Source: Candidatus Omnitrophota bacterium (GTDB taxonomy: Bacteria; Omnitrophota; Gorgyraeia; JABMRG01; JAFGKX01). Taken from it: a stretch of DNA of 31,064 bases. Position 1 is the first letter of the stretch; every line of letters starts with the position of its first letter. Below the pieces are notes generated by a model that saw only the letters and a program-made list of their open reading frames with translations, was not told the origin of the DNA and did not search any database. The stretch is taken from contig CP070655.1 in NCBI GenBank assembly GCA_020354945.1, forward strand, positions 148,667 to 179,730, written 5' to 3'. The position numbers were made by a program, and so were the translations under genes. Below are positions 7,066 through 29,530 of the stretch, one piece after another.

Positions 7066-7132
7066 CTCCACACTTACGCGTGGGGAATAAGATACAATAC
7101 ACGCCTGCCGGTAGACAGGCAAGTGTGTGGAG
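7066..7132. repeat. CTCCACAC...GTGTGGAG hairpin containing a 20-bp CCTGCC-type palindrome (7100-7119)
   Basis: 8-bp perfect arms; alternative right arm GCGTGGGG at 7078-7085; internal CACGCCTGCCGGTAGACAGG. Confidence 0.7.
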
Positions 7133-7149
7133 CCAAAGAAAGGTGAGAG

Positions 7150-7980
7150 ATGAAACAACGGCCAGACATTAACAAGCTCAGAAAGCAGGCTAAACAGATT
7201 AGAATAGATGTCTTGAAGATGCTTGCTGCTGCAGGCAGCGGTCATACTGGTGGTTCGCTTTCCTGCGTGGAGATTATCTTAAGCTTATATGGCTATAAGT
7301 TACGCTATAATTCCAAAAGACCGGACTGGCCGGATAGGGATAGATTTATTCTTTCAAAAGGCCATGGTTGCCCAACACTTTATGCTATTCTTGCTCATTT
7401 TGGATATTTTCCTAAAAAGGATCTTATGGATTTGAGAAAATTTGGTTCACTACTTCAAGGCCATCCCCAGCTTGGCCTGCCGGGCTTAGAATCCTCAACA
7501 GGCTCCCTGGGCATGGGTTTATCCATTGCTAACGGAATGGCTTTGGCAGCAAGACTGGATAAAAGAAAAGATGTAAGAATATATTGCCTTATGGGCGATG
7601 GTGAAATAGATGAAGGCCAGATATGGGAGGCGGCAATGACTGCTTCTCATTATAAACTGGACAATCTTTGCGGAATAGTAGATTTCAATAAATTACAAAT
7701 AGACGGTTTTTTACGTGATATAAAAAATATAAAGCCGGCTAGAGAAAAATGGCGCTCTTTTGGCTGGGAAGTTTTTGAAGTAGATGGCCACGATTTTAAA
7801 CAACTTATGGATGCTTATGATAAAGCTCAGCATATAAAAGGGAAACCCAGTATTGTCCTGGCTCATACAACAAAAGGTAAAGGCGTATCTTTTATAGAAA
7901 ATAAGGTAGAGTGGCATGGCATAGCGCCGAAGCCGGAAGAACTTGAAAGAGCTTTGAAAGAGCTGGAATCGTTGTCATAG
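7150..7980 (+). CDS. Transketolase, N-terminal (TPP-binding) subunit
   Basis: SGHTGGSLS, DRFILSKGH, LQGHP, STGSLG.G, GDGE..EG..WEA. Confidence 0.95.
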   Translation: MKQRPDINKLRKQAKQIRIDVLKMLAAAGSGHTGGSLSCVEIILSLYGYKLRYNSKRPDWPDRDRFILSKGHGCPTLYAILAHFGYFPKKDLMDLRKFGSLLQGHPQLGLPGLESSTGSLGMGLSIANGMALAARLDKRKDVRIYCLMGDGEIDEGQIWEAAMTASHYKLDNLCGIVDFNKLQIDGFLRDIKNIKPAREKWRSFGWEVFEVDGHDFKQLMDAYDKAQHIKGKPSIVLAHTTKGKGVSFIENKVEWHGIAPKPEELERALKELESLS

Positions 7981-8013
7981 AGTTATAGCGTTATAGAGTG
8001 TGAAACGCAATAA
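7973..8013. repeat. Octamer tandem array with short inverted arm
   Basis: TGTCATAG AGTTATAG CGTTATAG ... AACGCAATAAC. Confidence 0.55.
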
Positions 8014-8038
8014 CAAGCGCGCTTACAAGGAGTGCAAG

Positions 8039-9658
8039 ATGCTTATACATAGAAAGATAAAATTGTTTTTCTTAGAACATTGGGTAAAGGTCTTAATAAT
8101 TGCAGCTGTAGTCATTCTTTTGGTAACGGCTGTTTATGGCTTGAGCACATTAGAATCATTTTACAGACACATGACCCTTGCCACCTTGCCCCTTCAATTT
8201 CTTATGGTAGCTCTGAATGCGATGATATTCGTTTACATGTATATGACTGTATTCAGGGGTGGTTTTGCAAAAATGACTAAAAAGGCAATCAGGGGCGAGA
8301 AAGTAAATATCCGTTTTTCAGATGTGATAGGGATAGACGAGGCCAAAAAAGAGGCATGGGAAGTTGTGGAATTGGTAAAAGACAGAAGGCGGCTTCAGCA
8401 AATAGGCGGAAAGGTAATAAGAGGGATTATGATGCTGGGCCCGCCCGGTTGTGGAAAGACCTATTTAGCCAAAGCCATAGCAACAGAATCAGGCATCCCT
8501 TTTATATCTATGTCAGCCAGCGAATTTACAGAAATCTTTGTAGGGGTAGGGGCAAGCAGAATGAGAAAACTTTTTAAAAAGGCCAGGCGCCTGGCAAATG
8601 CCCATGGTGGCTGTATTATATTCATAGACGAGCTTGATGCTATAGGAAGAAGGCGCTCTTTTAGTTATTTAGGCGGGGGGATGGAGACAAATACTACTCA
8701 AAATGCGCTTCTTGTCGAGATGGACGGCTTAAAAGAAAAGGAAGAAAATGTCATCATTATAGGAGCGAGTAATGCTGCAGAGCTTACCCTTGATCCTGCG
8801 CTGCTAAGACCGGGAAGGTTTGATAGAAAGGTTTATATAGACATGCCTAATGTGGAAGGTAGAAAAAACTTGTTTAAATATTATCTTGGCAAGGTAAAAT
8901 ACGATAAGTCAATAGATATTGGCAGGTTTGCCAGGAAGACCGTTCATAGGTCTCCTGCCGATATTATGAATATAGTAAAAGAGTCAGCGTTGATAGCTAC
9001 CCGGAACAAAAAGACAGAAGTAAGTCAGAAGGAATTGAGCGAAGCAATAGAAAGGATAGACTTGGGTATAAAACATGACAGGAAGATGACTAAGCACGAA
9101 AGAGAGATGACTGCCTTTCATGAGTCAGGCCACCTGGTGATGCTTTATCTTATTCATCCGACAGATGATGTGTTTAAGGCCTCAATAATATCCAGAGGTC
9201 CTGCCTTAGGCATAGTTTATCATCAGCCAAGAGAAGAACTTTATACCCATAGTAAAGTTAAACTCCTTGCAGATATCAAAGTAAATCTCGGCGGCTATAC
9301 GGCCGAAAGAATAAAATTTGGCACGACTTCAAGCGGAGTAGCTAGCGATTTTCAGGCAGCAATGAATTTAGCCCATATGATGGTATGGAAATTAGGAATG
9401 GGCGCCTCCAGCCTTGTGGGTGATTATACAGCCGTTCCGAAGGAGCAGCTTTCAGAAGAAGTAAAGCAAAAGTTAAACGATGAAACTCAGACAATCCTGC
9501 AGAGTTGTTGTAAGGAAGTAGAAGAGGTGCTTAAAAAAGAATGGAAGATAGTTGAACGATTTACAAAAGAGCTTTTGGAGAAAAAAGAATTGGAATATGA
9601 CGAAATAGAGGCAATATTTAAAGAATACGGTAAAAAACACATCAAGGATGAAGCTTAA
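8039..9658 (+). CDS. ftsH: FtsH-like AAA+ zinc metalloprotease with minimal periplasmic loop
   Basis: Two adjacent TM segments; GPPGCGKT, FVG pore, IFIDE, PALLRPGRFDR, HESGH; AAGGAG RBS before ATG 8039. Confidence 0.88.
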   Translation: MLIHRKIKLFFLEHWVKVLIIAAVVILLVTAVYGLSTLESFYRHMTLATLPLQFLMVALNAMIFVYMYMTVFRGGFAKMTKKAIRGEKVNIRFSDVIGIDEAKKEAWEVVELVKDRRRLQQIGGKVIRGIMMLGPPGCGKTYLAKAIATESGIPFISMSASEFTEIFVGVGASRMRKLFKKARRLANAHGGCIIFIDELDAIGRRRSFSYLGGGMETNTTQNALLVEMDGLKEKEENVIIIGASNAAELTLDPALLRPGRFDRKVYIDMPNVEGRKNLFKYYLGKVKYDKSIDIGRFARKTVHRSPADIMNIVKESALIATRNKKTEVSQKELSEAIERIDLGIKHDRKMTKHEREMTAFHESGHLVMLYLIHPTDDVFKASIISRGPALGIVYHQPREELYTHSKVKLLADIKVNLGGYTAERIKFGTTSSGVASDFQAAMNLAHMMVWKLGMGASSLVGDYTAVPKEQLSEEVKQKLNDETQTILQSCCKEVEEVLKKEWKIVERFTKELLEKKELEYDEIEAIFKEYGKKHIKDEA

Positions 9659-10520
9659 TAAATCCCTCCTTTACGCTATCACACTCTCTCTTTTTGTTTT
9701 TGCAACATTGCAGCAAGGGTGCACTCCAACTTATCCCACTCAAGCGGATATGATAGAAGGCGTAAAACGTCTCTGCAAGGATGAATACGGAACCGAGGTA
9801 AAGGCAAAGATATCAGGCAAAACTATAGGGGTATATATGCCGATTAAAGGACTTTTTAATCTAAAAAATATGCAGCTTTCTAAGAAAGCTCTGGAGAAAG
9901 TTGACGGAGTTATGCTGAGTGTTTCAAGGGTAGCGTTAAGCGGAAGCAAAGAAATAGATTTTTATACAGTGGTGACTGCAGATGAGGATGTCCCGGGGGC
10001 AGAGGTAATCCTGACAAGGTACGTTATGGATTTACGCAGATTTTACTTTAGAGATATATCCCGGGGTGAATTCGCTAAACGGATGGTAGTAGATGTCAGA
10101 TTTAATCCCCAGGCGATAATCGATAGATGGACCGGCGAATTTACCGTTGATGAAGTAAAATTGGAAGATTTTATCTGCCAGCAGGCATCCCGCATGATAA
10201 CAGATGAATTTGGCACAAATGGCGATTTGGTCGGTAAGTTTAAAGTCGCCGAGTGTATAGGCAGACTTCAAAATAGGATTTTTGTATTCAATGTAGATAT
10301 TGCCAGAGAGGGCCTGCCGATGAGCGAACTTATCCATGGGAAAGGCTGGCATAAAGATGTATTGCTTATCTGCGGCAAAATTATATCCCACGTTATATGG
10401 GCATATAGCTATAAGGATTTTGATAGAATCTCGATAGCCAATAAGTTTGATAATAAGATATTGGAGATAGAAAAAAAGGATATAAATCGTTATAGGAAAA
10501 GGAAGATCAAAATGGAATAA
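9648..10520 (+). CDS. Hypothetical lipoprotein
   Basis: Signal peptide ending LQQGC (lipobox-like); overlaps the ftsH end by 11 nt. Confidence 0.7.
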   Translation: MKLNKSLLYAITLSLFVFATLQQGCTPTYPTQADMIEGVKRLCKDEYGTEVKAKISGKTIGVYMPIKGLFNLKNMQLSKKALEKVDGVMLSVSRVALSGSKEIDFYTVVTADEDVPGAEVILTRYVMDLRRFYFRDISRGEFAKRMVVDVRFNPQAIIDRWTGEFTVDEVKLEDFICQQASRMITDEFGTNGDLVGKFKVAECIGRLQNRIFVFNVDIAREGLPMSELIHGKGWHKDVLLICGKIISHVIWAYSYKDFDRISIANKFDNKILEIEKKDINRYRKRKIKME

Positions 10521-10539
10521 ACATCTTAAAACAAGGAGA

Positions 10540-11532
10540 ATGCAATTGGGCAAGAACAAGCAAGGGGAAAGTACGTGGAAAGCTACCAGAGACGGATATG
10601 GTAAAGGCCTGGTTGAATTGGGAGAAAAGAACAAGGATGTATTAGTATTAACTGCTGACCTGACTGTTTCAACCCGGGCAAATTGGTTTCAAGAAAAGTT
10701 CCCGGAGAGGCTTTTTACCTTCGGAGTGGCTGAACAGGATATGATTTCAACCGCAGCAGGTTTTGCTCTTTCAGGCAAGATACCTTTCTGTTGCAGCTTT
10801 GGAGTATTTGCCTCCGGAAGGGCCTGGGAGCAAGTGCGAACATCAGTTGCTTATATGAATTTAAATATAAACATAGGAGGAACCCACGGCGGAATATCAG
10901 TAGGCCCCGATGGAGCTACTCATCAGGCCTTAGAAGAGATAACCCTTATGAGGGTGCTGCCAAATATGACTGTGATAGTACCCTGCGATACTGTAGAGGC
11001 CAGGAAAGCAACGATAAACTCTGCTTCTATTTCAGGGCCTGTTTATCTTAGACTTAGCAGAGAGAAATTGCCTATCATTACGAAAGAGCAAGAACCATTT
11101 ACGATTGGTAAGGCGAATGTCTTAAAAAAGGGCAAAGATGTGACTATAATTGCATGCGGCATTATGGTATATCAGTCATTGTTTGCTGGCGAGTTGTTAA
11201 AGAAAAAGGGCATAGATGCTACTATAATAAATTTACACACAATAAAACCTATAGATATTGAAACAATCCTAAAGTCGGCATCGCAAACCAAAGCCGTGGT
11301 TACTTGCGAGGAGCACTTAATTGCAGGCGGTGTGGGTTCGGCTATAGCAGAATCACTGGCTGTAACATTACCTGTTCCAATCGAGATGGTAGGGGTAAGG
11401 AACAGGTTCGGTGAATCGGGCGACCCGTGGGTACTTATGAAAGAATTTCACCTTATGCCAGAAGATATCGTTGCAGCATGTGAGAGGGTTATTGCAAGGA
11501 AAAAGAAAGGTAAAGATAAGGAACGTTTCTGA
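10540..11532 (+). CDS. Transketolase, C-terminal (pyrimidine-binding) subunit
   Basis: ATRDGYG, GVAEQDM, GPDGATHQ, GPVYLRL, TIKPID, EEH...GG.G. Confidence 0.95.
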   Translation: MQLGKNKQGESTWKATRDGYGKGLVELGEKNKDVLVLTADLTVSTRANWFQEKFPERLFTFGVAEQDMISTAAGFALSGKIPFCCSFGVFASGRAWEQVRTSVAYMNLNINIGGTHGGISVGPDGATHQALEEITLMRVLPNMTVIVPCDTVEARKATINSASISGPVYLRLSREKLPIITKEQEPFTIGKANVLKKGKDVTIIACGIMVYQSLFAGELLKKKGIDATIINLHTIKPIDIETILKSASQTKAVVTCEEHLIAGGVGSAIAESLAVTLPVPIEMVGVRNRFGESGDPWVLMKEFHLMPEDIVAACERVIARKKKGKDKERF

Positions 11533-11547
11533 AACGCCCCCAAGACG

Positions 11548-12522
11548 ATGCAATCTACCATTATAAAAGCGCCTGCCAAGGTCAATCTTTATTTAGACGT
11601 TATTAATAAACGAGGCGATGGTTATCATAATATAGAAACTATATTTGAAAAAATAGACTTATGTGATTGGATAAAGGTATCTGTTATACCAAGGGGCATA
11701 AAACTCGCATGCGAAGTGCCCGAAGGGTGCAAGAATAGCACTCTATTAGATAACGTAAATAATACCGCTTATAGAGCAGCCAAACTTTTATGCGAAAGAT
11801 ATAATCTAAGGTGTGGTTTTAAAATCGAGCTCGATAAACGCATACCAATAGCTTCCGGCCTCGGAGGAGGCTCATCAGACGCTGCGGCCGTACTTTTATC
11901 CATATGTAATTTATTAAATATTAAAATAGAAAAACAGGCCCTATTAAAATTAGCTGCGGAAATAGGCGCAGATGTGCCGTTTTTTGTTTCGGGATATAAC
12001 AGAGCCTTTGCTACAGGGATAGGGGAGCAATTGCACCCTTTAAAACAAAACCAAAATATGTATTTTCTATTAGTTGTGCCGGATATAAAGATATCTACGA
12101 AATCTGTCTACGCGCCATTGCGAGCCCCGAATGAGCGAAGCAATCCCAAAAACAGTGGATTGCTTCGTCAGGGCCAGACCTTTGGCCTTCCTTGCAATGA
12201 CGGTGGTTATATCCCCGCCAATTTGAACTTGACAAAGAAAAGACGCGATGTTAGTATATTGTGTCATAATTTAGAAAACTTGGCTGTTTATAACATCAAA
12301 GACGTATTGTTTAATAAGCTGGAGGAAGTGATTTTGCCTTCATACCCTGTGTTGCATGATATAAAGAAGGCATTAAAGAAAACAGGGGCTGAAGGTATTA
12401 TTGTCTCTGGCAGCGGCTCGGCTGTTTATGGGGTATTTCAAAGCAGAAAGGAGGCGATGAGGGCAGAGAGCAAACTGATAAAAAAAGGGAATTGGCAACT
12501 TTTTTTAGCCAGGAATTGTTAG
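11548..12522 (+). CDS. ispE: 4-(cytidine 5'-diphospho)-2-C-methyl-D-erythritol kinase carrying a ~30-aa palindrome-derived insert
   Basis: APAKVNLYL, KRIPIASGLGGGSSDAA, GADVPFF, SGSGS. Confidence 0.95.
   Translation: MQSTIIKAPAKVNLYLDVINKRGDGYHNIETIFEKIDLCDWIKVSVIPRGIKLACEVPEGCKNSTLLDNVNNTAYRAAKLLCERYNLRCGFKIELDKRIPIASGLGGGSSDAAAVLLSICNLLNIKIEKQALLKLAAEIGADVPFFVSGYNRAFATGIGEQLHPLKQNQNMYFLLVVPDIKISTKSVYAPLRAPNERSNPKNSGLLRQGQTFGLPCNDGGYIPANLNLTKKRRDVSILCHNLENLAVYNIKDVLFNKLEEVILPSYPVLHDIKKALKKTGAEGIIVSGSGSAVYGVFQSRKEAMRAESKLIKKGNWQLFLARNC
12113..12202. mobile_element. 90-bp palindromic element (GTCATTGCGAG/CGAAGCAATC type) inserted in frame in ispE
   Basis: Outer arms CGCCATTGCGAG/CTTGCAATGACG (10/12); inner perfect CGAAGCAATCC/GGATTGCTTCG. 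Confidence 0.8.
12229..12257 (+). promoter_or_regulatory. Internal sigma70 promoter inside ispE
   Basis: TTGACA 12229-12234, 17 bp, TAGTAT 12252-12257, preceded by extended TG at 12249-12250. Confidence 0.55.
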
Positions 12523-12602
12523 GGAGTAGAGATCGCTGTGGTATTTTAAGAGTTTTCTAGCGACCTCAAAAACAACTATGATAAAAAGGAGTAAAGCTCA
12601 AT

Positions 12603-13055
12603 ATGGAAATTACAGAGGTAAAGATTTTTTTGAAAGAGTCTGAGGACAAGAAACTGAAAGCTTTTGCAACAATGACTTTTGACGATGCATTCGTAGTAAG
12701 GAATGTAAAAGTCATTAATGGAAACAAAGGTCTTTTTGTTGCCATGCCTTCACGCAGAATGAGACAATCCTGCCCTAAATGCGGATTTAAAAATGCTATG
12801 AGGAGCAGATTTTGCAATCAGTGCGGAGCAGCTATGGAACCTCCTTTACCGCCTGCCGAAGGTGAAATCGGCGAAAGGTCAGTTCGCCAATCAGAGCACA
12901 GGGACATTGCTCATCCTATAAACTCTGAATTTAGAGATTACATCCAGAAGAGGGTTATAGAGGCTTACGAGAAAGAAAAATCAGAAGCAGTTGCTGAAAG
13001 GAAGAGCCCGCATAGAGAGTCAGCACCGCCACACGAGACAGAGGACATAGAATAG
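12603..13055 (+). CDS. spoVG: SpoVG family nucleic-acid-binding protein with zinc-ribbon insertion
   Basis: MEITEVKI, GLFVAMPS, DIAHPIN; CPKC...CNQC insert. Confidence 0.92.
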   Translation: MEITEVKIFLKESEDKKLKAFATMTFDDAFVVRNVKVINGNKGLFVAMPSRRMRQSCPKCGFKNAMRSRFCNQCGAAMEPPLPPAEGEIGERSVRQSEHRDIAHPINSEFRDYIQKRVIEAYEKEKSEAVAERKSPHRESAPPHETEDIE

Positions 13056-13093
13056 CAGCAATCACAACATATAAGAATGTAGCGATCAGATGA

Positions 13094-13205
13094 TAAATCC
13101 AAAATCCAAATATTACAAAATCCAAAATAAATCCAAAATCCCAAATCCAAATTTTGGGATTTGGAAATTGGGATTTATTTGATAGTATTGGGATTTGGGA
13201 TTTAT
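13094..13205. repeat. Head-to-head heptamer array (AAATCCA / TTGGGAT) before tRNA-Gln
   Basis: About six AAATCC(A/C) units then about five TTGG(G/A)AT-like units; central imperfect palindrome 13125-13180. Confidence 0.9.
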
Positions 13206-13208
13206 TTT

Positions 13209-13282
13209 TGGGGGGTTGTGTAACGGTAGCACTCGAGCTTTTGGAGCTCGTAGTCCTGGTTCGAATCCAGGCCTCCCAGCCA
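13209..13282 (+). tRNA. tRNA-Gln (TTG)
   Basis: Acceptor TGGGGGG/CCTCCCA, anticodon arm CGAGC-TTTTGGA-GCTCG, T arm CCTGG-TTCGAAT-CCAGG, encoded CCA. Confidence 0.97.
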
Positions 13283-13331
13283 AAATGCTGGAGGCAGTTT
13301 CGAAAGGAGATTTAGCTTCGGGAGAAAAACC

Positions 13332-14573
13332 ATGCAGAAATGTTCATTTTGCTCAAGAGATAAGGCCAAGGTTAATAAACTTTTTAGCGGGCCTGGCGTG
13401 TATATATGTGATTACTGTGTAAAGTTATGTAAGCAGATTTTAGAAAAAGAGCAACAACAGCCTAAAAGGCTTAAGCCATTTCTGTTAAAAGAACTCCCAA
13501 AGCCGGTTGCTATTAAGAAGAAGTTAGACGAATATGTAATAGGACAGGAGAGGGCCAAAAGACAGCTTTCGGTAGCTGTATATAATCACTACAAAAGGAT
13601 TACATCCAAAGCAGCTCCTTCTGGTTTAGATGATGTTGAGCTGGAAAAAGCCAATATTCTTCTGATAGGGCCAACCGGCAGTGGCAAGACATTGCTGGCA
13701 AGGACCCTTGCCAGAATACTAAAGGTACCGTTTGCCATCTGTGATGCTACCCCCCTTACTGAGGCCGGTTATGTAGGAGAGGATGTAGAGAATGTCCTTT
13801 TAAGACTCCTGCAAAGTTGCGACTATGATGCAAATAAAGCTCGCTACGGTATAGTTTATATCGATGAGATAGACAAGATAGGAAAAACCCAGGAAAATGT
13901 CTCAATTACCAGGGATGTTTCCGGAGAGGGGGTTCAACAGGCGTTATTAAAAATATTAGAAGGCACAGTTGCCAATGTCCCACCAAAAGGCGGCAGGAAA
14001 CACCCCCATGAAGAATACATAAAGCTGGACACAACTAATATATTGTTTATATGCGGGGGCACATTTAGCGGTTTGGATAACATTATAAAAAAAAGAACAG
14101 GGAAACAATCTATAGGATTTCATACTACTTTAAAGGCCAATAGGCAGATAGAGCTCGGAGAGATTTTAAGTCAAATAGAGCCGGAGGATCTTTTAAAATA
14201 CGGTATGATACCGGAATTTATCGGCAGGTTTTCTACCATTTCTACACTTTGCCCGCTTGATGAAGACGATTTAGTTAAAATCTTGACCGAACCCAAGAAC
14301 GCCTTGGCAAAGCAGTATAAGAAATTTTTTGATATGGAAGGAGTAGAGTTAAAATTTGATAAAGGAGCCCTAAAAGAGATAGCCAAAAAGGCCGCAAAGA
14401 AGCAAACCGGCGCAAGGGGTTTGCGTTCGATCCTTGAAGAGATTATGCTGGAGATAATGTATGATTTACCATCCCATAGCAATGTGGCCGGTTGTGTTAT
14501 CGATAAAGAATGCATTATCAACAAGAATAAACCAGACCTGATATATAAAAGAGCCGGCAAGAAAGTAGCATGA
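13332..14573 (+). CDS. clpX: ATP-dependent Clp protease ATP-binding subunit ClpX
   Basis: C4 zinc finger, [33 protein letters not shown] loop. Confidence 0.97.
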
Positions 14574-15862
14574 AAACTACGAGATACGAGATACGAGATA
14601 GGAGATACGAAAATATAAGATGTGTAATCCTTGCTGCCGGATTAGGCACCAGGATGAATACCAACCTGCCTAAAGCTTTGCACAAGATAGGCAATGAAAT
14701 GATGTTAGAGCGGTTGATAGAGACTGTAAAGTCATCGGGTATAAGCCACATAGTAGTGGTGGTTGGCTATGGCTCAGAGCAAGTTGAGGATATTCTAAAA
14801 AAATATAACATAAACACGATTAGACAAAATAAACTGTTGGGTTCAGCCGACGCAGTAAAAGCGGCAAAGAGATATTTTACGAAATTTACCGGTAGCCTTT
14901 TAGTTTTATATACAGATACACCATTGATTAGGAAGGCCACCCTTAAAGGACTTATAAATAGACATAGGCGTTCAGGTGCTGCATGTACCTTGCTTGCTGC
15001 AGATGTTAATAGCCCTACAGGATATGGCAGAGTCATCCGTGATTCCTCCGGGGACATTGTCAAAATTGTAGAAGAGAAAGATGCGACAGTCCACGAGAAA
15101 GATATGACCCAGATTAATGTAGGGGCATATTGTTTTAAAAGGAAAGAGCTTTTTGATGTCTTGGCAAGGATAAAAAAGAATCCCAAAAAGGGAGAGTTTT
15201 ACCTTACAGATATAATAAAGCATTTTAGAGATAGAGGCATGCCGATAAGCAGTTATGATAAATGTTCCGAAGAAGAGGCATTGGGAATAAATTCACGAGA
15301 GGATTTAAGCGCTGCCGAGAAAATCATAAGGATGAGAAAAATAAAACAGCTTATGGAAGGAGGAGTCACCTTTATAGATCCGGAGACAGCATACATAGAT
15401 AAAAAGGTGAAGATAGCTAAAGATACTGTCGTTTATCCTTCAGTCGTTATACAAGGAGAAGTTATAATAGGAAAAAATTGCCGTATTGGTCCGTTTGCTA
15501 AGATAAGAGGAAAGACAGAGATAGATAGAAATTGCGTTATTGGAAATTTTGTTGAGGTTGTTCGTTCTAAAATAGGCGAAAATACCAAGGTAAAGCATCA
15601 TGTTTATTTAGGAGATGCCTATGTAGGCAATGATGTAAACATAGGAGCAGGCGCAATTACTGCTAATTATGACGGTAAAAGAAAAAACAGAACCACCATT
15701 AAAAGTCGAGCATTTATAGGAGTGGGCGCTATTCTTATCGCCCCGGTCAAAATAGGTGAGCAAGCAGTGGTAGGAGCCGGTAGCGTAGTTACTAAAAATA
15801 AAGATGTGCCGGATAAAGCAACAGTAATCGGCGTGCCCGCAAGGGTATTGAGAAAAAAATAG
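14570..15862 (+). CDS. glmU: Bifunctional N-acetylglucosamine-1-phosphate uridyltransferase/acetyltransferase
   Basis: ILAAG.GTRM...PK, GYGR, EFYLTD, hexapeptide repeats, NYDG; ATGA overlap with clpX. Confidence 0.95.
14580..14614 (+). repeat. Heptamer array (CGAGATA) inside the glmU 5' end
   Basis: CGAGATA x3, GGAGATA, CGAAAAT. Confidence 0.85.
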
Positions 15863-15868
15863 AACACA

Positions 15869-15947
15869 GCACTTAACTGCCTGCCGGCAGACAGGTAAGT
15901 GCGTGGAATATTCAAAACGGATGCCCCACAGGCAGGTGTGCGGGGCA
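15869..15947. repeat. GCACTTA/TAAGTGC palindrome split by a 20-bp element, plus TGCCCCACA/TGCGGGGCA hairpin
   Basis: GCACTTA[ACTGCCTGCCGGCAGACAGG]TAAGTGC at 15869-15902; second hairpin at 15922-15947. Confidence 0.8.
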
Positions 15948-15966
15948 AAGAAAGGGACCTAACAAA

Positions 15967-16908: not shown

Positions 16909-16918
16909 AGTTTTTAGG

Positions 16919-16968
16919 GGGCGCCAGACACTATGTTCGCTATAAAGAGTTCCCAGTGCCTGACACCC
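16919..16968. repeat. REP-like imperfect inverted repeat between prs and rplY
   Basis: GGGCGCCAGACACT / AGTGCCTGACACCC, 11/14, all three mismatches become G.T wobbles on the minus strand. Confidence 0.65.
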
Positions 16969-16975
16969 ACGAATC

Positions 16976-17728
16976 ATGGAAAAGATTACATTAAACGCAC
17001 AGATAAGAGAAGATACCGGTAAGAGCGCGAGCAGACGATTACGAAACAATTATACGATACCGGCAGTTGTATATAAACAGGCAGAAAAGACTCTTCCTAT
17101 ACAGGTTAAAACGACCGATTTTATTCATATATTACACACTGCTGCCGGAGAGAATGTAATTATAAGCTTAAAAATCGCACCATTGGTGAAAACCCTGCCA
17201 GGCCGGCAGGTAAGCAAATCAAGCAGCGCCATCAAGACCGTAATTATAAAAGAGATACAATACCATCCTACAAAGGAAAATATATTGCATATTGACTTTC
17301 AGGAAATATCTTTAACTGAGAAGATCACAGTCAAAGTTCCCATAGTATTAAAAGGTGAAGCGGTAGGAGTCAAGACCGAAGGGGGCATCTTAGAGCAGAT
17401 GACCAAAGAACTTGAGATAGAATGCCTGCCTACTAAGATACCGGAAAAAATAGAATTTAATATAGAGGCGATGAAGATAGGTGACATCGTTCATGTGAAA
17501 GAACTGGAGATCCCGGCTGATGTTAAGGCATTAGTTGATTCAGAGCAGGCAGTAGTTTCAGTTTCGCCACCAAAGGTTGAAGAAGTCACAGTTGCAGAAG
17601 AAGTAGCAGAGGAAGCAATAGAAGAACCTGAAGTTATAACTGAAAAGAAGGCAGAGGAGAGAAAAGCCGAAGCAGCAGAAGAAGAAGAAGCGAAGAAAAA
17701 GGAAGGCGAAAGGCCAGAGAGTTCGTAG
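16976..17728 (+). CDS. rplY: 50S ribosomal protein L25 / Ctc
   Basis: GKSASRRLR, IPAVVY, HIDF, GVK.EGG, acidic tail; carries a short insert at ~17177-17215. Confidence 0.96.
   Translation: MEKITLNAQIREDTGKSASRRLRNNYTIPAVVYKQAEKTLPIQVKTTDFIHILHTAAGENVIISLKIAPLVKTLPGRQVSKSSSAIKTVIIKEIQYHPTKENILHIDFQEISLTEKITVKVPIVLKGEAVGVKTEGGILEQMTKELEIECLPTKIPEKIEFNIEAMKIGDIVHVKELEIPADVKALVDSEQAVVSVSPPKVEEVTVAEEVAEEAIEEPEVITEKKAEERKAEAAEEEEAKKKEGERPESS
17178..17210. repeat. CACCA-T-TGGTG plus CCTGCC-AGGCC-GGCAGG palindromes inside rplY
   Basis: Encodes PLVKTLPGR in a loop of L25. Confidence 0.65.
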
Positions 17729-17786
17729 TTATGAGTTTCTGTCTGCCGGCAGGCAGGCGTAGTTCGTGGACTACGAACTACGAACC
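17719..17786. repeat. Head-to-head heptamer array (RAGTTCG / CGAACTA) with nested 20-bp palindrome
   Basis: GAGTTCG TAGTTAT GAGTT[TCTGTCTGCCGGCAGGCAGG]CG TAGTTCG TGGACTA CGAACTA CGAACCA. Confidence 0.9.
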
Positions 17787-17790
17787 AAAA

Positions 17791-18362: not shown

Positions 18363-18662
18363 ATGAGAGAATACGAAGCGATGGTCATTTTAAAGCCTGA
18401 ATTGCAAGGCGATGTGCTTAAGGTCTCCTTTAATGAAATTCTAGATATAATTAAAAAATATCGATGCGACATTGAAAATGTTAATGAATGGGGGAGGAGG
18501 CCTTTAGCTTATAATATTGCTAAAAATATAGAAGGTACATATTTTTTGGTTAAATTTAAAGGAGAACCCGAAAGCATTAGCGAAATTAACAGGGGATTTT
18601 CCTTAAATGAGAACATCCTCAGGGCTATGGTAACTGTCCAGCACAAAGAAAAGGTTACATGA
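18363..18662 (+). CDS. rpsF: 30S ribosomal protein S6
   Basis: MREYE, WGRR.LAY.I, ILR. Confidence 0.96.
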   Translation: MREYEAMVILKPELQGDVLKVSFNEILDIIKKYRCDIENVNEWGRRPLAYNIAKNIEGTYFLVKFKGEPESISEINRGFSLNENILRAMVTVQHKEKVT

Positions 18663-18751
18663 GGTTATGAGGTTACCTGCCTGCCTGCAGGCAGGCTTTA
18701 AAATGCAACCTTATGCAACCTCATTTAACCTAATGTAACTTCCTGTAACCT
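18652..18751. repeat. Head-to-head decamer array (AGGTTACATG / ATGYAACC) with nested 20-bp palindrome
   Basis: AGGTTACATG AGGTTATG AGGTTA[CCTGCCTGCCTGCAGGCAGG]CTTT then five 10-bp units at 18701-18750. Confidence 0.88.
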
Positions 18752-18774
18752 TCGTTAATAACGCAGGAGATAAT

Positions 18775-19239: not shown

Positions 19240-19254
19240 ATGTGAGGTAGAAAC

Positions 19255-19515: not shown

Positions 19516-19519
19516 GATG

Positions 19520-20012: not shown

Positions 20013-20063
20013 TCAGTTCTCAGTAATTAGCTGAAAACTGAATACCGATAACAGAAAACTAAC
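20007..20063. repeat. Head-to-head heptamer array (CAGTAAT / CTGAAAA)
   Basis: CAGTAAT CAGTTCT CAGTAAT TAG CTGAAAA CTGAATA CCGATAA CAGAAAA CTAAC. Confidence 0.8.
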
Positions 20064-20089
20064 CCGGGGTGTCCCCACAGGAGAATACA

Positions 20090-21451: not shown

Positions 21452-21453
21452 AT

Positions 21454-21504
21454 AAAATTAAAAATTAAAAACTAAAAATTTCAATTTTGCATTTTACATC
21501 TTTC
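21454..21504. repeat. Head-to-head AT-rich heptamer array (AAAATTA / ATTTTRC)
   Basis: AAAATTA AAAATTA AAAACTA AAAATTT CA ATTTTGC ATTTTAC ATCTTTC; low complexity lowers confidence. Confidence 0.6.
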
Positions 21505-21541
21505 CATATTTATTATAAATTAAATAAAATAAGGAATTATT

Positions 21542-23857: not shown

Positions 23858-23859
23858 TA

Positions 23860-24029
23860 AAGTGAGCTTTGATGTTGTTCGCTCGACTAATTTTTTACGC
23901 CGTACTTTTGGACTTATGGCTCGCAGCTTACACGCAATAGGTAAGAGCCTGCTGCAGCTCGCCATAAGCCCTAAAATGACATTTGGCGGAAAAAATTAAT
24001 TGTCTCGCTCACAACACCAAAGCTCACTT
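23860..24029 (-). mobile_element. 170-bp rod-like palindromic element (MITE/REP-like) between bamA and skp
   Basis: Terminal arms AAGTGAGCTTTGATGTTGT / ACAACACCAAAGCTCACTT (18/19); pairing continues to the centre with three TC/TC (minus-strand GA/GA) mismatches. Confidence 0.85.
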
Positions 24030-24052
24030 GTATATTGAGAATGGAGGAAATT

Positions 24053-24565
24053 ATGAATATGAAAGTTTGTAGTTTAGTTTTGCTGTTTGCGTTTATCTTT
24101 TCGACAGTTTTTGCACCAGCCTATGCTGCGGAATTAAAGATAGGCTATGTAGATGTAGCTCGTGTATTTGACAACTACAATAGGACAAAAGACCAGGATA
24201 AAATTCTTGAACAGCAGAATAACAAGAAAAAAGAAGAGAGAGACAAGATAGTTAAGCAGATAAGAAAGATGAAAGATGAGCTTGATATTTTAAGCGAGAA
24301 GGCCAAAGAGAGAAAACAAACCCAGATTGACGAAAAGATAAGAGAGCTTCAGGAATATGATCAACAGACCAGAAACGGTCTAAGACAGCAAAGAGACGAA
24401 GTGGTGCGGAAGATTTTAAAAGAGATAGAGCAAGTTACAGAAAAATATGCCAACGAGAATAGTTACACTATGATATTGAATAACAGGGTCCTTCTTTATG
24501 GTCAAAAGCAACACGACATTACGGATAAAATATTAAAGATACTGAATTCTGAATACAAAAAATAA
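24053..24565 (+). CDS. skp: Skp/OmpH periplasmic chaperone
   Basis: Signal peptide, KIGYVD, coiled coil, DITD.IL; GGAGG RBS; bamA-skp-lpxD order. Confidence 0.92.
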   Translation: MNMKVCSLVLLFAFIFSTVFAPAYAAELKIGYVDVARVFDNYNRTKDQDKILEQQNNKKKEERDKIVKQIRKMKDELDILSEKAKERKQTQIDEKIRELQEYDQQTRNGLRQQRDEVVRKILKEIEQVTEKYANENSYTMILNNRVLLYGQKQHDITDKILKILNSEYKK

Positions 24566-25609
24566 ATGGGAAAAAGTTTAAAAGAAATTGCATCAGCGAT
24601 AAACGGAAAGATTATTGGTGATGAAAATATAATTATTACCGGAGTATGCGGGATAAAGGAAGCCCAACAAGGCGATATCACTTTTCTGGCCCACCCAAAG
24701 TATAAATCATTCCTTCAAAAGAGCCATGCCTCGGCAATTATAACCTCAAAAGATATAAAATTCCCCTCCAAAGCGATAGTCCAGACAGAAAATCCATCTT
24801 TAGCTTTCACCAAAGTAATATCCATGTTCATGCCGCAGCGCTTAAAACATCCTGCGGGAATACATGAAAAAGCGGTTATCGGTAAAGATGTTAAGCTTGG
24901 CGAGAATGTTTCTGTAGGGGCTTGTTCGGTTATAGAAGATGGGACTTCTATAGCAAAAGAGGTTGTTGTTTATACTAACTGTTACTTAGGCAGAGATGTA
25001 AAAATAGGAAAAAACTCATTAATATATCCTAATGTAACCATAATGGAAGGTTCGATAATAGGTAAAAATGTTGTAATCCATAGCGGTTCGGTAATAGGCT
25101 CGGATGGTTTTGGATATGTTGAAGTTGAAGGCACACATCATAAGATTCCTCAAACAGGCATAGTAGTTATAGAAGACGGTGTTGAGATAGGAGCCAATGT
25201 TACAATAGACAGGGCCAGATTTGGAAAGACTCTTATTGGCAAAGGCACAAAGATAGACAACCTTGTCCAGATAGCCCATAATGTAAAAATAGGGCCAAAT
25301 TCAATTATAGTAGCTCAGGCAGGAATATCCGGCAGCACCACAATCGGTAAACACACAATATTGGCCGGTCAGGCAGGGCTGGTTGGGCATATAGATTTAG
25401 GAGACAATGTAATTGTGGGAGCTCAATCCGGCGTAACCAAATCTTTTCCATCAGATACTGTTGTTCTTGGCTCCCCCGCTAAGCCCAGCTCTGAACAGAG
25501 AAAGATTTTTGCATGCATAAGTAAACTGCCCGAGCTGTTTAATACATTAAAAAGAATAAAGAAGAAAGTGCTTAAAGATGACGGCAAATCAAAACACAAT
25601 AAAAAATGA
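24566..25609 (+). CDS. lpxD: UDP-3-O-acylglucosamine N-acyltransferase
   Basis: Hexapeptide repeats, [31 protein letters not shown]. Confidence 0.97.
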
Positions 25610-26954
25610 GGTTAGCTTAAAGGGCGTCGGAATACATACAGGCAAAAACGCAAACATTACCTTTAAGCCAGCCCCGCCAAATAGTGGCGTAAATTTTATA
25701 AGAACAGACCTATCCGAAAAAGTAGTTATCCCTGCTAATATATCTTACCTTTTAGATGAATCCTTAAGGATGCGCAGAACCTCAATAGGGAAAGAAGAGG
25801 GGCAGGCGCATACCATAGAGCACCTTATGGCCTCATTTTTGGGGCTTGGCATAGACAATATTTATGTGGAAATGGACGGCCCTGAAGTTCCCGGATTAGA
25901 TGGAAGCGCAAATGAGATTGTGAGGGCATTAAAAAAGGCAGGTCTATTAAAACAGGATGCGCCGCGAAAAGAACTTTTAATAAAAGAACCGCTCTGGCTT
26001 GAGGAGGGAGACAGTTCGCTGGTTATTTTACCGGATAAAAATTTTAGCATTTCATATATCTTAGATTACAATCATCCGGGATTAAGGTCTCAGTATAACC
26101 ACTTCAGGATTGATTCTGAAATTTTCGAGAAAGAGATCGCTCCCAGCAGGACATTTTGTTTAAAAGAGGAAGCGGATGGGCTTATTAAACAGGGCGTTGG
26201 CAAAGGGGCTTCTTTGAAAAACACTGTAGTAATTGATGAAAAAGGCCTTCCAACGATGGAATTAAAATTTGAAGATGAATTTTTGCGGCACAAGATACTT
26301 GATCTTATAGGCGACATCTTTCTTTCAGGCCATTTTTTAAAAGCCCACATAATAGGCATAAAGAGCGGCCATTCTCTTAATTTAAAGATGGCTCAACTCA
26401 TAAAGTCAAGATGTATTAAAGAAGAGAAACCGCGCAACCAAGGAGCTTCATTCTGGAAGGTTCCTCGCCATCGAAAACCAGTGAACGAAAAACCAGTAAC
26501 CAGCAACCAGAAACCAGATACTGAAAAGCCCATTTTAAATAAAAAGCAAATTGAACAAATATTGCCGCATCGGGAGCCTTTTCTTTTAGTGGATGAGATA
26601 ATAGAAATGGGAGAAACAAAAGCAGTCGGTATAAAGAATGTAGAAAGTAAAGAGTATTATTTTGCCGGCCATTTTCCGGACAGGCCTATTATGCCGGGGG
26701 TGCTAATTGTAGAAGCCTTAGCTCAAACAGGCGGCGTACTTATGTTAAGTAAACCACAGAATAAAGGCAAACTTGCCTATTTTATGTCTATTAATAACGC
26801 AAAATTTCGAAAGATAGTAACTCCTGGGGATAAACTGCGCCTTGAGATTGAAGTTGTAAGATTTAAGACAAGGACAGGTCAGGTCCGTGGCAAGGCTTTT
26901 GTTGATGGAAATATTGTCTGCGAGGCAGACCTTATGTTTTCGCTGGTGGACTGA
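25578..26954 (+). CDS. lpxC: Bifunctional LpxC deacetylase / FabZ dehydratase fusion
   Basis: [24 protein letters not shown]; then [27 protein letters not shown]. Confidence 0.95.
26476..26525 (+). repeat. Heptamer array (AACCAGN) in the LpxC-FabZ linker
   Basis: AACCAGT ... AACCAGT AACCAGC AACCAGA AACCAGA TACTGAA. Confidence 0.85.
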
Positions 26955-26956
26955 TA

Positions 26957-26998
26957 ATCAGTTATCAGTTACTGACGACTGACGACTGACAAATGATA
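26957..26998. repeat. Head-to-head heptamer array (ATCAGTT / ACTGACG) between fabZ and lpxA
   Basis: ATCAGTT x2, ACTGACG x2, ACTGACA, AATGATA (contains the lpxA ATG). Confidence 0.9.
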
Positions 26999-27769
26999 CA
27001 TAAAACTACAATAATACACCCCAAAGCAAAATTAGCAAAGAATGTTTCCGTCGGCCCGCATACTATAATTGGCGAACACGTTAGCATTGATGAAAATACA
27101 AAGATAGGGGCTAATTGCTTAATAGACGGGTGCACCACCATAGGAAAGGACTGTGAGATTTTTACCGGTGCAGTTATAGGAAGTATTACCCAGGATAAAA
27201 AATATAAAGGTGGACGGGCCCTTTTAAAAATAGGCGACAGAAACAAAATAAGGGAATATGCAACTATAAATTTAAGCACCGATAGCAAAGACAGGACATT
27301 GATAGGAAACGATAATCTTATTATGGCTTATGCCCATATTGCCCATAATTGCAAAGTTGGAAATAACGTAACCTTAGTAAATGCGTCCACACTGGCTGGA
27401 TATGTTGTCGTTGAAGATAATGCTGTCGTAGGTGGCTTAGCAGCGATTCATCAATTCGTAAGGATAGGCAGATTGGTTATAGTAGGAGGATGTTCTAAAG
27501 TAGTGCAGGATATAATTCCTTACTCTATGGCCGATGGGCATCCCGCAAAAATATATGGAATTAATTCGGTTGGCTTAGACAGAGCAGATATAAAACCTGC
27601 TATAAAATTAAGAATTAAAAAGGCGTTTAAGATATTATTTTCTATGAAATTAAATACCAAGAGCGCAGTTGCTAAAATCAAACAGGAAATCCCTGAGTGC
27701 AAAGAGATTTTTTATTTAATTAAATTCATAAACTCCTCAAAAAGGGGTATCGCCCGTGCTCGATATTAA
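26993..27769 (+). CDS. lpxA: Acyl-ACP--UDP-N-acetylglucosamine O-acyltransferase
   Basis: IH.T.IIHP.A, QDKKY, IREY.TIN, HIAHNC, IHQF, IN.VGL.R. Confidence 0.97.
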   Translation: MIHKTTIIHPKAKLAKNVSVGPHTIIGEHVSIDENTKIGANCLIDGCTTIGKDCEIFTGAVIGSITQDKKYKGGRALLKIGDRNKIREYATINLSTDSKDRTLIGNDNLIMAYAHIAHNCKVGNNVTLVNASTLAGYVVVEDNAVVGGLAAIHQFVRIGRLVIVGGCSKVVQDIIPYSMADGHPAKIYGINSVGLDRADIKPAIKLRIKKAFKILFSMKLNTKSAVAKIKQEIPECKEIFYLIKFINSSKRGIARARY

Positions 27770-28574
27770 AGATATAAAAAGAATAGGCTTGATAACAGGA
27801 AATGGCAAATTTCCTGTTTTTATATGCCGGGCTGCAAAAGGGCAGAACATAGACATAGTTGTTATAGCGGTGAAAGATGAAGTAGATTCAGACCTGTCAA
27901 GATATGTTGATAAGATATACCGGATAGAATTGGGCCAGGGAAAGAAACTGTTGGAGATATTTAAAAAGGAAAACCTTAAATACGCAATTATGGCCGGTAG
28001 GATTAAAAAGACTACTATTTTTAAACAAACATTTAAGATGGATGAGGTAACGCGTAATGTCCTTAGGAGCGTAATAGATAGAGGAGACAATACAATACTT
28101 AAGGCTATAGCCGATAGATTAAAAAAAGAGAATATCCAACTTTTGGATTCCACTGCGTTTTTAAAAAGTATTATGGCAAAAAGAGGCATTTATACCAGGG
28201 GAAAACCCAATCGTTCTCAAAGAGAAGATATAGATTTTGGATTTAAAATAGCCAAGGCAATAGGAGGTCTGGATATAGGCCAGACCGTGATTATAAAGAA
28301 GAAGGCAGTAATAGCTGTAGAGGCAATAGAAGGGACTGATGAAGCAATAATTCGGGCAGGGGGGTTAAGCCCCGGCTGCGTTGTAGTAAAGACCTCAAAA
28401 CCTAATCAGGATATGCGATTTGATGTCCCAACTGTAGGATTAAATACTATAGAGTCGATGAAGAAAGCAGGTGCTTGTGTCTTGGCAATAGAAGCTGATA
28501 AGACCTTGATTTTAGAAAAAGATGCTATGATAAAAGAAGCTGATAAGGCAGGGATATGTATAATTGCGGTGTGA
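27756..28574 (+). CDS. lpxI: UDP-2,3-diacylglucosamine diphosphatase LpxI
   Basis: IGLI.G.G.FP, LDIGQTV, AVEAIEGTD, KP.QD.RFD.P.VG; follows lpxA. Confidence 0.92.
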   Translation: MLDIKDIKRIGLITGNGKFPVFICRAAKGQNIDIVVIAVKDEVDSDLSRYVDKIYRIELGQGKKLLEIFKKENLKYAIMAGRIKKTTIFKQTFKMDEVTRNVLRSVIDRGDNTILKAIADRLKKENIQLLDSTAFLKSIMAKRGIYTRGKPNRSQREDIDFGFKIAKAIGGLDIGQTVIIKKKAVIAVEAIEGTDEAIIRAGGLSPGCVVVKTSKPNQDMRFDVPTVGLNTIESMKKAGACVLAIEADKTLILEKDAMIKEADKAGICIIAV

Positions 28575-28582
28575 TAGCAATG

Positions 28583-28624
28583 TTAATTGTAAGTTGTAAG
28601 AATTAAGGATTAAGTTGTAAGATG
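28583..28624 (+). repeat. Heptamer array (TAAGTTG) before nadE
   Basis: TTAATTG TAAGTTG TAAGAAT TAAGGAT TAAGTTG TAAGATG (last unit contains the ATG). Confidence 0.8.
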
Positions 28625-29479
28625 AAAGGACTCAAGATAAATCCCAAGAGAGTGAAGAAAAAGCTGGTGGATTTTATTATGGGCAATGTGCATAACTGCG
28701 GCTTTGAAAGAGCAGTAATAGGTTTATCAGGCGGGTTAGATTCAACAACTACTGCATATTTAGCCGCTGAGGCATTAGGCCCACCCAATCTGTTAGGGGT
28801 CATTATGCCATATAAAACTACTCCAAAAGCAGATATTGCTGATGCAAAATATATATGTAAAAATTTAGGCATAAGGTCAAAATATATAGATATAACCGAT
28901 ATGGTAGACGCTTATTTTAAAAAGATACCCCCCCACACCAAAAGTTTTGGTGAGGGGAGCAAACCCCCACACCAATTGTATAAAAACAGAGAAATGCAAA
29001 TTGGCGAGGGGGTAAATTTAAAGAATAAGATTAGGCGCGGAAACAAAATGGCCAGAGAGAGGATGTCAATACTTTATGATTTATCTTTTGATTTTAATGC
29101 TTTGGTATTGGGAACAAGCAACAGGACAGAGATTCTTTTAGGCTACGGCACTATTTACGGAGACATAGCCTGCGCCTTGAACCCGATGGGAGGTTTGTAT
29201 AAATGCCAGGTCATTCAGCTAGCCAAATTTTTAAAAATTCCTGCCTCTATAATAAATAAAATTCCCTCTGCAGGTTTTTGGAAAGGACAAACAGATGAAG
29301 GAGAGCTTGGGTTTATATATAAGGATGTCGATAAGCTGCTTAGTTGTCTAATAGATAAAAAATATACATCAGCTCAACTGATAAGGAAAGGTTTTGACAA
29401 AGATTTTGTTTATAAAGTAAAACAGAGGATAAAGAAGAATAGGTTTAAAAGGCAGTTGCCCAAAATAGCGAGGATATGA
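28622..29479 (+). CDS. nadE: NH3-dependent NAD+ synthetase carrying a ~29-aa palindrome-derived insert
   Basis: GLSGGLDS, GNKMARERM, GTSNRTE..LGY.T.YGD, PSAG.W.GQTDE; no glutaminase domain. Confidence 0.95.
   Translation: MKGLKINPKRVKKKLVDFIMGNVHNCGFERAVIGLSGGLDSTTTAYLAAEALGPPNLLGVIMPYKTTPKADIADAKYICKNLGIRSKYIDITDMVDAYFKKIPPHTKSFGEGSKPPHQLYKNREMQIGEGVNLKNKIRRGNKMARERMSILYDLSFDFNALVLGTSNRTEILLGYGTIYGDIACALNPMGGLYKCQVIQLAKFLKIPASIINKIPSAGFWKGQTDEGELGFIYKDVDKLLSCLIDKKYTSAQLIRKGFDKDFVYKVKQRIKKNRFKRQLPKIARI
28927..29013. mobile_element. Tandem CCCCACACCAA...TTGGYGAGGGG hairpins inserted in frame in nadE
   Basis: Hairpin 1 at 28931-28957; hairpin 2 arms at 28963-28977 and 28999-29013; about 87 bp (29 codons). 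Confidence 0.8.
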
Positions 29480-29530
29480 AGTAATGTCCCTGCGATACTC
29501 GTATTCCCTGCCTGCTGGCAGGTTCATATC
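29473..29530. repeat. GATATGAA/TTCATATC inverted repeat enclosing a truncated CCTGCC palindrome
   Basis: 8-bp perfect arms; CCTGCCTGCTGGCAGG at 29507-29522. Confidence 0.65.

Follow-up and report, generated by a model that had tools for sequence, protein, structure and literature searches.

Insertion of hairpins without target-site duplication is established for HUH enzymes. Palindromic elements of about 100 to 150 nt occur as in-frame inserts in protein genes of the Rickettsia lineage. The small dispersed repeats (SDRs) of Nostoc, as work from 2008 is said to describe them, are about 21 to 27 nt long, often lie in tandem heptamers, are sometimes nested, and were proposed to be the smallest mobile elements; they are reportedly confined to a subgroup of the cyanobacteria, and an RNA intermediate has reportedly been proposed for them. 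Here we describe a 20-nt palindromic repeat (the 20-mer) that occurs in a 31,064-nt stretch of DNA (the window) from a Candidatus Omnitrophota bacterium (assembly GCA_020354945.1, CP070655.1, positions 148,667 to 179,730). We found that the 20-mer is a very small noncoding repeat, belonging to a real and widely spread family, and the sequence comparisons below make it, at slightly better than even chances, the cognate hairpin repeat of small (about 80- to 90-aa) single-domain GIY-YIG nucleases of the Ssn kind. Ssn nucleases, in the part of the source available to us, are small single-domain GIY-YIG endonucleases of single-stranded DNA (ssDNA) whose genes are flanked by 20- to 50-nt hairpin repeats; they form the cd10448 clade, cleave ssDNA site specifically next to the hairpin, and have a published degenerate SRM search motif that starts with HGTC (PMC11893778).

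The 20-mer consists of (CCTG)2CC followed by its own reverse complement and is a GC-rich perfect palindrome. As ssDNA it is predicted to fold into an 8-bp stem with a 4-nt CCGG loop (-8 kcal/mol). On inspection of the letters, all of its frames are free of stop codons and of ATG, GTG, and TTG, and variants of its arms change in length by entire CCTG/CAGG units. The genome to which the window belongs (G000; 1.14 Mb, 38.9% GC, 129 contigs, 89% complete, with the window being one entire contig) contains the pattern CCTGCC-N0-10-GGCAGG in 46 overlapping matches, versus 0 in each of five first-order Markov simulations. Among the GC-rich perfect palindromes of this genome, the 12-mer core ranks first with 20 copies, followed by one with 3. 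Within the window, a pattern search with up to 3 mismatches gave three matches, and 100 shuffles gave 0. The genome-wide count proposed in an earlier note on this DNA thus placed the repeat far above chance, but only 6 copies are perfect, and 38 places are reached only when up to 4 mismatches are allowed. These 38 lie mostly (29) outside long frames. Similarly, among perfect copies from all genomes, 17 of 125 fall inside long open frames, compared with 674 of 1,190 random positions. The 20-mer therefore has the character of the repetitive extragenic palindromic (REP/REPIN) sequences, which are dispersed, mainly extragenic GC-rich hairpins. No Rfam family matched the repeat, a second hairpin repeat of the window that we call family A, or the regions upstream of the GIY-YIG genes described below. 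We found no account of the 20-mer in the literature on palindromic elements, on REPIN/RAYT, or on GIY-YIG with tRNA, and the 12-mer core used as a text query returned only unrelated zebrafish papers.

We then looked at the distribution of the 20-mer. With up to 2 mismatches, it is present in 38 of 61 genomes of the window's class, up to 53 times in one genome, and the reversed control gave 0 in all 61. The exact 20-mer occurs at at least 120 loci (one genome per species) in many phyla. By record titles, some of which may carry unreliable labels in the case of metagenome-assembled genomes (MAGs), the matches listed include 38 from Bacteroidota (7 of them cultured isolates), 36 from Patescibacteria, 12 labeled Gamma/Pseudomonadota, 10 from Omnitrophota, 8 from Planctomycetota/PVC/Verrucomicrobia, 6 from delta-type bacteria or Bdellovibrionales, 3 from Thermodesulfovibrionales, 3 from others, and 4 that are unclassified. 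There was no cyanobacterium among the matches listed at these loci. The 20-mer was also found in 35 stretches of viral contigs. When up to 2 mismatches are allowed, 49 copies are found in the isolate Longitalea luteola, and a count over the listed places gives 30 perfect ones. At the same threshold we found 9 copies in a Chitinophagaceae MAG, 8 in Flagellimonas, 3 in a complete WWE3 genome, and 1 in Winogradskyella. The controls for all of these genomes gave 0.

To find genes that accompany the repeat, we clustered the frames within 1.5 kb of 155 palindrome loci. Two families came out on top, with 5 loci each: one is a small GIY-YIG protein (median distance, 0), and the other is a four-helix-bundle protein (median distance, 921 nt). 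The latter (at L119 and 4 other loci) is of the kind found in rRNA intervening sequences. The earlier note had proposed a search for genes flanked by copies, with GIY-YIG as an alternative candidate, and this is the family that is linked to the repeat. In samples of GIY-YIG loci that were not chosen by the repeat, the chance expectation is about 1% per locus, a rough estimate from copy density. For the order Chitinophagales, we ordered 30 loci by their similarity to a single palindrome-adjacent protein and found the repeat no more than 60 nt away from 8 of them. All 8 are among the best 14 by similarity, and none is among the remaining 16 (Fisher P = 5e-4). In the window's class, the repeat accompanies 5 of 30 GIY-YIG loci, always 19 to 49 nt upstream, and one of these belongs to a genome (G002) of the window's own family. 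When class loci were taken by Pfam score, 1 of 12 had the repeat, as a variant. The palindrome-adjacent proteins are 77 to 87 aa long and match PF01541 at E values of 1e-14 to 1e-18. No NCBIfam family scored above cutoff for them, and the nearest solved structures are those of UPF0213 proteins. A small single-domain GIY-YIG gene flanked by a hairpin, as described for Ssn, is thus found at these 8 Chitinophagales and 5 class loci.

Some of these genes lie in tRNA genes. A GIY-YIG open reading frame (ORF) stands between an intact tRNA and a partial tRNA copy in G002 and G016 and at loci L048, L117, L230, L232, and L235, and the partial copy bears the palindrome in a loop. The same step in the D-loop of tRNA-Arg(TCT), GGATA|GAGC, recurs in cassettes of Omnitrophota and Bacteroidota. 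Two loci (L241 and L243) have tandem GIY-YIG genes with the repeat between them. Perfect copies also occur in tRNA fragments without an adjoining ORF (L041, L096, and L110). Small GIY-YIG genes inside tRNA genes with a duplicated tRNA part were observed at L294 (in G002), L260/L261 (in G016), L048, L117, and L230 to L235; some of these ORFs end within tRNA sequence, and the design is common to Omnitrophota, Patescibacteria, and Bacteroidota. Two further arrangements were observed. In a Thermodesulfobacteriota MAG (L071:2751-4892), a type I restriction specificity-like (hsdS-like) protein carries a GIY-YIG domain in frame between its halves, and the domain is preceded by the palindrome, read as PACRQAG. 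In G027, a group I intron (L174:1114-1339; Rfam, 94 bits) in a tRNA cluster adjoins a small GIY-YIG gene.

From these sequence data we conclude that the 20-mer and the small GIY-YIG proteins probably form an Ssn-like pair of nuclease and hairpin with a new type of hairpin, of which the solo hairpins would be the dispersed form. The gene-bearing form would be a cassette in a tRNA gene, with the nuclease ORF between the intact tRNA and a partial copy whose D-, anticodon-, or T-loop bears the palindrome. Such cassettes may cross phyla and take the same hairpin along; because tRNA sequences are conserved, they could move between phyla. Solo hairpins without the gene would then multiply within a genome. 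They would land without target duplication, somewhat more readily in heptamer arrays, tRNA-like DNA, and hairpin tips than elsewhere, and would persist at places where they do no harm, either in spacers or as in-frame loops of 18 or 21 nt in proteins. The data show the family and where it occurs, the exact limits of its inserts, and its linkage to GIY-YIG genes and tRNA fragments; that the nuclease recognizes the hairpin and is responsible for its spread is inferred, as is the chemistry of insertion. In G000, most copies are probably relics, with a few recent inserts, since we found no small GIY-YIG gene there and most copies are worn.

The pair resembles the Ssn system in having a small single-domain GIY-YIG gene beside a hairpin, with the Ssn repeat being 20 to 50 nt long in the part of the source available to us (PMC11893778). 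The same part describes hairpins dispersed mainly outside genes and a mobile-element-like layout of gene and hairpin, as we find here (PMC11893778). The differences are that the 20-mer lacks a GTC-type tag and does not fit the SRM motif as given there and that it reaches tens of copies per genome, versus hundreds for Ssn in the sections consulted (PMC11893778). The 20-mer also usually lies on one side of the gene, its cassettes are lodged in tRNA genes and include a partial copy of the tRNA, and one identical 20-mer recurs across many phyla. If the Ssn assignment is correct, the recently described Ssn nucleases have a second, very different hairpin partner, and we have here a natural case in which such a hairpin acts as an exact 20-nt insert. 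It would also connect heptamer arrays, GC-rich palindromes, and tiny GIY-YIG genes in tRNA clusters, three traits of small environmental genomes that so far lack a good explanation.

Other known repeats share parts of this picture. Like the SDRs, which are said to be about 20 to 27 nt long and to lie in tandem heptamers, the 20-mer is partly embedded in heptamers. In contrast to the reported confinement of SDRs, it is found in many phyla, and it is linked to GIY-YIG genes. With the Rickettsia palindromic elements it shares the tolerance of in-frame inserts in protein genes. We know of no enzyme link like that to GIY-YIG for either these elements or the GC clusters of mitochondria. Rickettsia elements and GC clusters are 40 to 150 nt long and belong to one lineage or organelle, whereas the repeat here is 20 nt long and occurs in many phyla. 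As far as the consulted part of the source goes, GC clusters resemble the 20-mer in being GC-rich palindromes of AT-rich genomes that are optional between close relatives, and GC clusters and palindromic microsatellites share arms made of a short repeated unit (PMC7218506).

Several results weigh against the Ssn assignment. In G000 itself, which has 6 perfect copies, the only GIY-YIG match lies in a 514-aa frame, and we found no small GIY-YIG gene in this 89% complete assembly. Across the 61 genomes, repeat counts and GIY-YIG counts are uncorrelated (rho = 0.19, P = 0.14), and genomes with 6 to 8 GIY-YIG matches hold no repeat. In Longitalea, 0 of 7 GIY-YIG matches adjoin a listed copy. The palindrome-adjacent GIY-YIG genes cluster on a tree (8 label changes versus 14.5 when shuffled) but do not form one clade; this tree is weak, having 53 rows and 78 columns, with 6 of the rows picked for having the repeat. 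By reading, the 20-mer holds no GTC, so it does not contain the SRM motif starting with HGTC, and the flanks of 121 copies carry no conserved tag. Finally, the linkage could stem from a taste for tRNA-like DNA that hairpins and cassettes share.

This last point leads to the strongest alternative, in which the repeat spreads independently of GIY-YIG proteins, by repair or template switching or through an unknown enzyme, and meets GIY-YIG genes only via dispensable structured DNA, tRNA remnants, and heptamer arrays. Consistently with this, only 5 of the 155 loci are near a GIY-YIG gene, copy numbers do not follow gene counts, G000 and Longitalea hold many copies without an adjoining gene, and the ORF-less tRNA fragments mentioned above hold perfect copies. 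We nevertheless think this alternative rather unlikely. Against it stand the narrow distance at all 5 class loci, the restriction of the repeat to the closest homologs (8 of the top 14 versus 0 of 16), and the recurrence of the tRNA-Arg step in both Omnitrophota and Bacteroidota.

A bolder form of the Ssn reading takes the 20-mer itself to be a mobile DNA element, of nearly the smallest size possible. We put this forward tentatively, as something that we would sooner doubt than assert. An Ssn-type GIY-YIG nuclease would cut ssDNA at exposed loops, which would be those of tRNA-like hairpins, heptamer arrays, and hairpin tips, and the hairpin would be joined there without duplication. The pair would cross phyla by way of cassettes with conserved tRNA genes as their homing sites, which the cassettes would rebuild. 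Such transfer would explain why an identical 20-mer is found in Patescibacteria, Omnitrophota, Bacteroidota, and others.

To determine how the repeat sits in its surroundings, we examined the copies in the window. The copies and related features are as follows.

1 to 7 (unstranded): AGGCAGG, the first letters of the contig; they may be what remains of a copy truncated by the assembly, which is not provable.
3404 to 3440 (+ strand): copy of the family A hairpin that lacks the palindrome and represents a paralogous empty site.
7100 to 7119 (unstranded): degenerate palindrome copy with 4 mismatches, in an 85-nt spacer between two same-strand ORFs.
15876 to 15895 (unstranded): palindrome copy with 2 mismatches, centered in a short inverted repeat; in the same-genus genome G001, the entire spacer (about 100 nt) is missing.
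15923 to 15946 (unstranded): small hairpin with GGCAGG (15931 to 15936) in its loop, the "fragment" of the earlier note, whose status as a copy is not demonstrable.
16921 to 16968 (unstranded): 48-bp "family B" hairpin, missing from G001.
16976 to 17728 (+ strand): gene for ribosomal protein L25 (Ctc type), host of the 21-nt insert.
17194 to 17214 (+ strand): 21-nt palindrome-derived in-frame insert within the L25 gene, adding LPGRQVS.
17738 to 17757 (unstranded): palindrome copy with 2 mismatches, within a GTTCGTA-type heptamer run in the L25-pth spacer.
18676 to 18695 (unstranded): palindrome copy with 1 mismatch, with three CCTG units on the left and two CAGG units on the right.
29507 to 29522 (unstranded): short form of 16 nt, located on the tip of one of the family A hairpins (29486 to 29541).

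The copies that the earlier note had located are thus present, but none matches its consensus perfectly (1, 2, 2, and 4 mismatches). Its "short variant" at 17194 does derive from the palindrome but is a 21-nt in-frame block in L25, and the one at 29507 to 29522 is indeed a 16-nt form, sitting on the tip of another hairpin repeat. The fragments that it listed at 1 to 7 and near 15930 could not be demonstrated to be copies, being 7 nt and a loop hexamer (GGCAGG). The copy at 18676 to 18695 is flanked by facing runs of 8- to 10-nt repeats (18652 to 18676 and 18702 to 18739). Of the 258 contig ends of G000, only 1 falls within a copy, so assembly breaks are not explained by the repeat.

We found that the 20-mer appears as a discrete insert without target-site duplication. 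The clearest cases are in protein genes. The L25 gene of G000 has 21 nt that are lacking from that of G001, with flanks that are about 97% identical, and in the L25 alignment 8 of 9 relatives have no residues in the 7 insert columns. This insert is polymorphic between strains: exactly 21 nt are missing in a contig of run X3, and they are kept in a contig of run X2 and in L195, a near-identical metagenome contig that is about 97% identical in genes. A metagenome scan with L25 found one close relative only. At genome position 580159, a perfect copy adds 21 nt in frame compared with G001, G002, and G003. At position 710196, another copy adds 21 nt in frame compared with the same three genomes, with its flanks unaltered and nothing duplicated. 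Conversely, G001 has an 18-nt in-frame form whose orthologous place in G000 is empty. Three 21-nt inserts and one 18-nt insert are thus in frame in protein genes, as in the Rickettsia elements, and the 7-residue loops in L25 and two other proteins indicate that even core genes tolerate the repeat.

Paralogous sites are equally exact. Among the family A hairpins of G000, 7 have the repeat at one fixed point and 5 do not, and in several genomes the sole difference between a partial tRNA copy and the adjoining intact tRNA is the 20-mer. This exact presence and absence of 20 nt agrees with the earlier proposal of an ultrasmall insert-like element. The claim that insertion occurs without target duplication was likewise borne out by these filled and empty pairs and by the flanks of perfect copies from a wide range of phyla, of which 121 were used after 4 of the 125 had been excluded because their flanks were too short. 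No flanking direct repeat is present in 68 of the 121 (86.6 expected), and a 1-nt repeat is present in 38 (22 expected). Flanking direct repeats are at chance overall, with the sole excess being 4 cases of exactly 7 nt, all inside heptamer arrays. The flank profile shows no conserved tag, and its only bias is A at -1 and T at +1 (of the 121 copies, 52 have A at -1 and 13 have T there).

The intergenic copies of the window behave differently in relatives. The spacer around 15876 is absent altogether in G001, and the G001 spacers corresponding to 17738 and 18676 hold other repeats. In L195, a 48-bp family B hairpin stands at the 17738 place instead of the palindrome, and at the 18676 place the entire array is missing together with the palindrome. 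Family B thus occupies the place of the palindrome, or of the palindrome plus heptamers, at two orthologous sites in relatives. Of the 9 copies in G001, 3 are shared with G000, 1 corresponds to an empty place and 1 to a family B hairpin in G000, and 4 have no alignable counterpart. There is no clean 20-bp empty site for the intergenic copies of the window because entire composite blocks differ. The comparisons with G001 and L195 indicate that copies are partly old and inherited and that spacers are replaced as blocks. The earlier statement that removing 20 nt restores the host fits the letters at 15876, 17738, and 18676, but neither relative has the 20-bp empty site. Similarly, the proposed comparison with relatives yielded exact empty sites for the coding inserts and none for these intergenic copies. 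For annotation, the repeat marks fast-changing spacers, and it can be mistaken for a terminator.

The other repeats in these spacers have features of their own. G000 has 12 copies of family A, a hairpin repeat about 40 nt long (window regions 3389 to 3440 and 29486 to 29556). A short TTAAC..GTTAA palindrome often stands before it, and two of the copies adjoin tRNA genes; a similar hairpin is found ahead of some GIY-YIG genes of relatives. Family B, a 48-bp hairpin, is optional between close relatives (window 16921 to 16968, G000 near 43200 to 43400, and L195). G001 fills the spacers after L25 and after the gene at 18363 to 18662 with its own repeat family, which has a GTAGGGACGTTT core in long hairpins.

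The earlier note had connected insertion without target duplication to HUH enzymes, and we therefore asked whether the repeat could be a REP/REPIN-type element moved by a Y1 (RAYT) HUH transposase. Such insertion of hairpins is the known behavior of HUH enzymes, G000 has a single-copy Y1_Tnp gene (209 aa; G000:C1:1123640-1124266, L011:1474-2103), and Y1 homologs are present in 53 of the 61 class genomes. From their translations, we take the neighbors of this gene to be O-antigen-ligase-like and dihydroxy-acid-dehydratase-like. Its motifs NHIH and YIERNP read like those of subclass 2.1, for which the part of the source available to us gives no known REP partner (PMC6006769). Like REP/REPIN sequences, the 20-mer is a short, GC-rich, dispersed extragenic palindrome that is partly inherited vertically and presumably moved in trans. 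However, no copy was found at any of 9 Y1 loci with 1.5 kb on either side, the flanks of the G000 Y1 gene are free of the repeat, and Y1 counts and repeat counts are uncorrelated (rho = 0.15, P = 0.24). Genomes with 5 to 8 Y1 matches hold no repeat, whereas two genomes with 5 and 2 repeats have no Y1 match, and Longitalea has a single Y1 protein, which belongs to another type. The conserved unpaired GTAG/CGTC tag of REP sequences, as given in the consulted part of the source, was not found around the 121 copies (PMC3733652). REP sequences are also lineage specific, whereas the 20-mer is the same across phyla. A RAYT as the mover is improbable, and this part of the earlier proposal did not hold up. 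At a Longitalea locus (L206), facing heptamer runs of GTGAATG type lie directly upstream of the Y1 gene.

An immobile functional hairpin, such as a terminator, an RNA stabilizer, or a protein-binding site kept or re-created by selection, is also quite improbable. It would account for the location of most copies in short spacers between same-strand genes, for the T runs after some copies, and for the 3 copies kept at orthologous sites in G001 and G000. It would not account for the in-frame inserts in L25 and two other genes, of which the L25 insert varies between strains, for the copies in tRNA fragments, for the unrelated flanks of the 30 perfect Longitalea copies (count of listed places), or for the exchange of sites for other hairpins in close relatives. 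In addition, only 5 of the 19 copies that are informative have the wobble-tolerant strand as their sense strand (14 are discordant; these numbers are too small for interpretation), and no Rfam family matches. An assembly or library artifact, such as a palindromic linker, might be suspected from a perfect palindrome in many metagenome assemblies but has next to no likelihood, given that flanks continue across copies (tRNA halves and reading frames), that worn or variant copies are conserved at orthologous sites, and that cultured isolates carry the repeat, as do assemblies made with many different pipelines.

Finally, we examined the claim that the palindrome targets other repeats and hairpins. 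Words of at least 8 nt that recur exactly, in inverted or direct orientation, bridge the junction at 13.8% of 123 sites, compared with 3.4% of 2,354 random positions in the same loci. At noncoding sites of G000, inverted words of at least 6 nt were found in 7 of 29 cases, compared with 9.5% of 600 random noncoding positions. Copies adjoin period-7 arrays in 9 of 121 cases versus 5 of 1,736 random positions, a control that included nonspacer DNA (Fisher P = 2.4e-8). In G000, 5 of 38 copies lie within 10 nt of such an array, compared with 0.9% of all bases and 2.7% of non-ORF bases. By our reading of the flanks, at least 18 of 22 Longitalea luteola copies stand in register between heptamer units. 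In contrast, a folding-based test gave no difference in junction-spanning pairs (9.2 versus 8.4 and 9.0 versus 10.1; P = 0.17 and 0.96), about half of the copies lie in no detectable repeat, and only 7 of 238 period-7 arrays of G000 have a copy within 40 nt. We concluded that the preference for other repeats is real but partial. Period 7 is the commonest tandem repeat period of G000 (238 of 825 TRF arrays, versus 35 of period 6). Examples in the window are at 13095 to 13203, 14578 to 14610, and 17770 to 17785, and such arrays often consist of two facing runs that would form a long hairpin.

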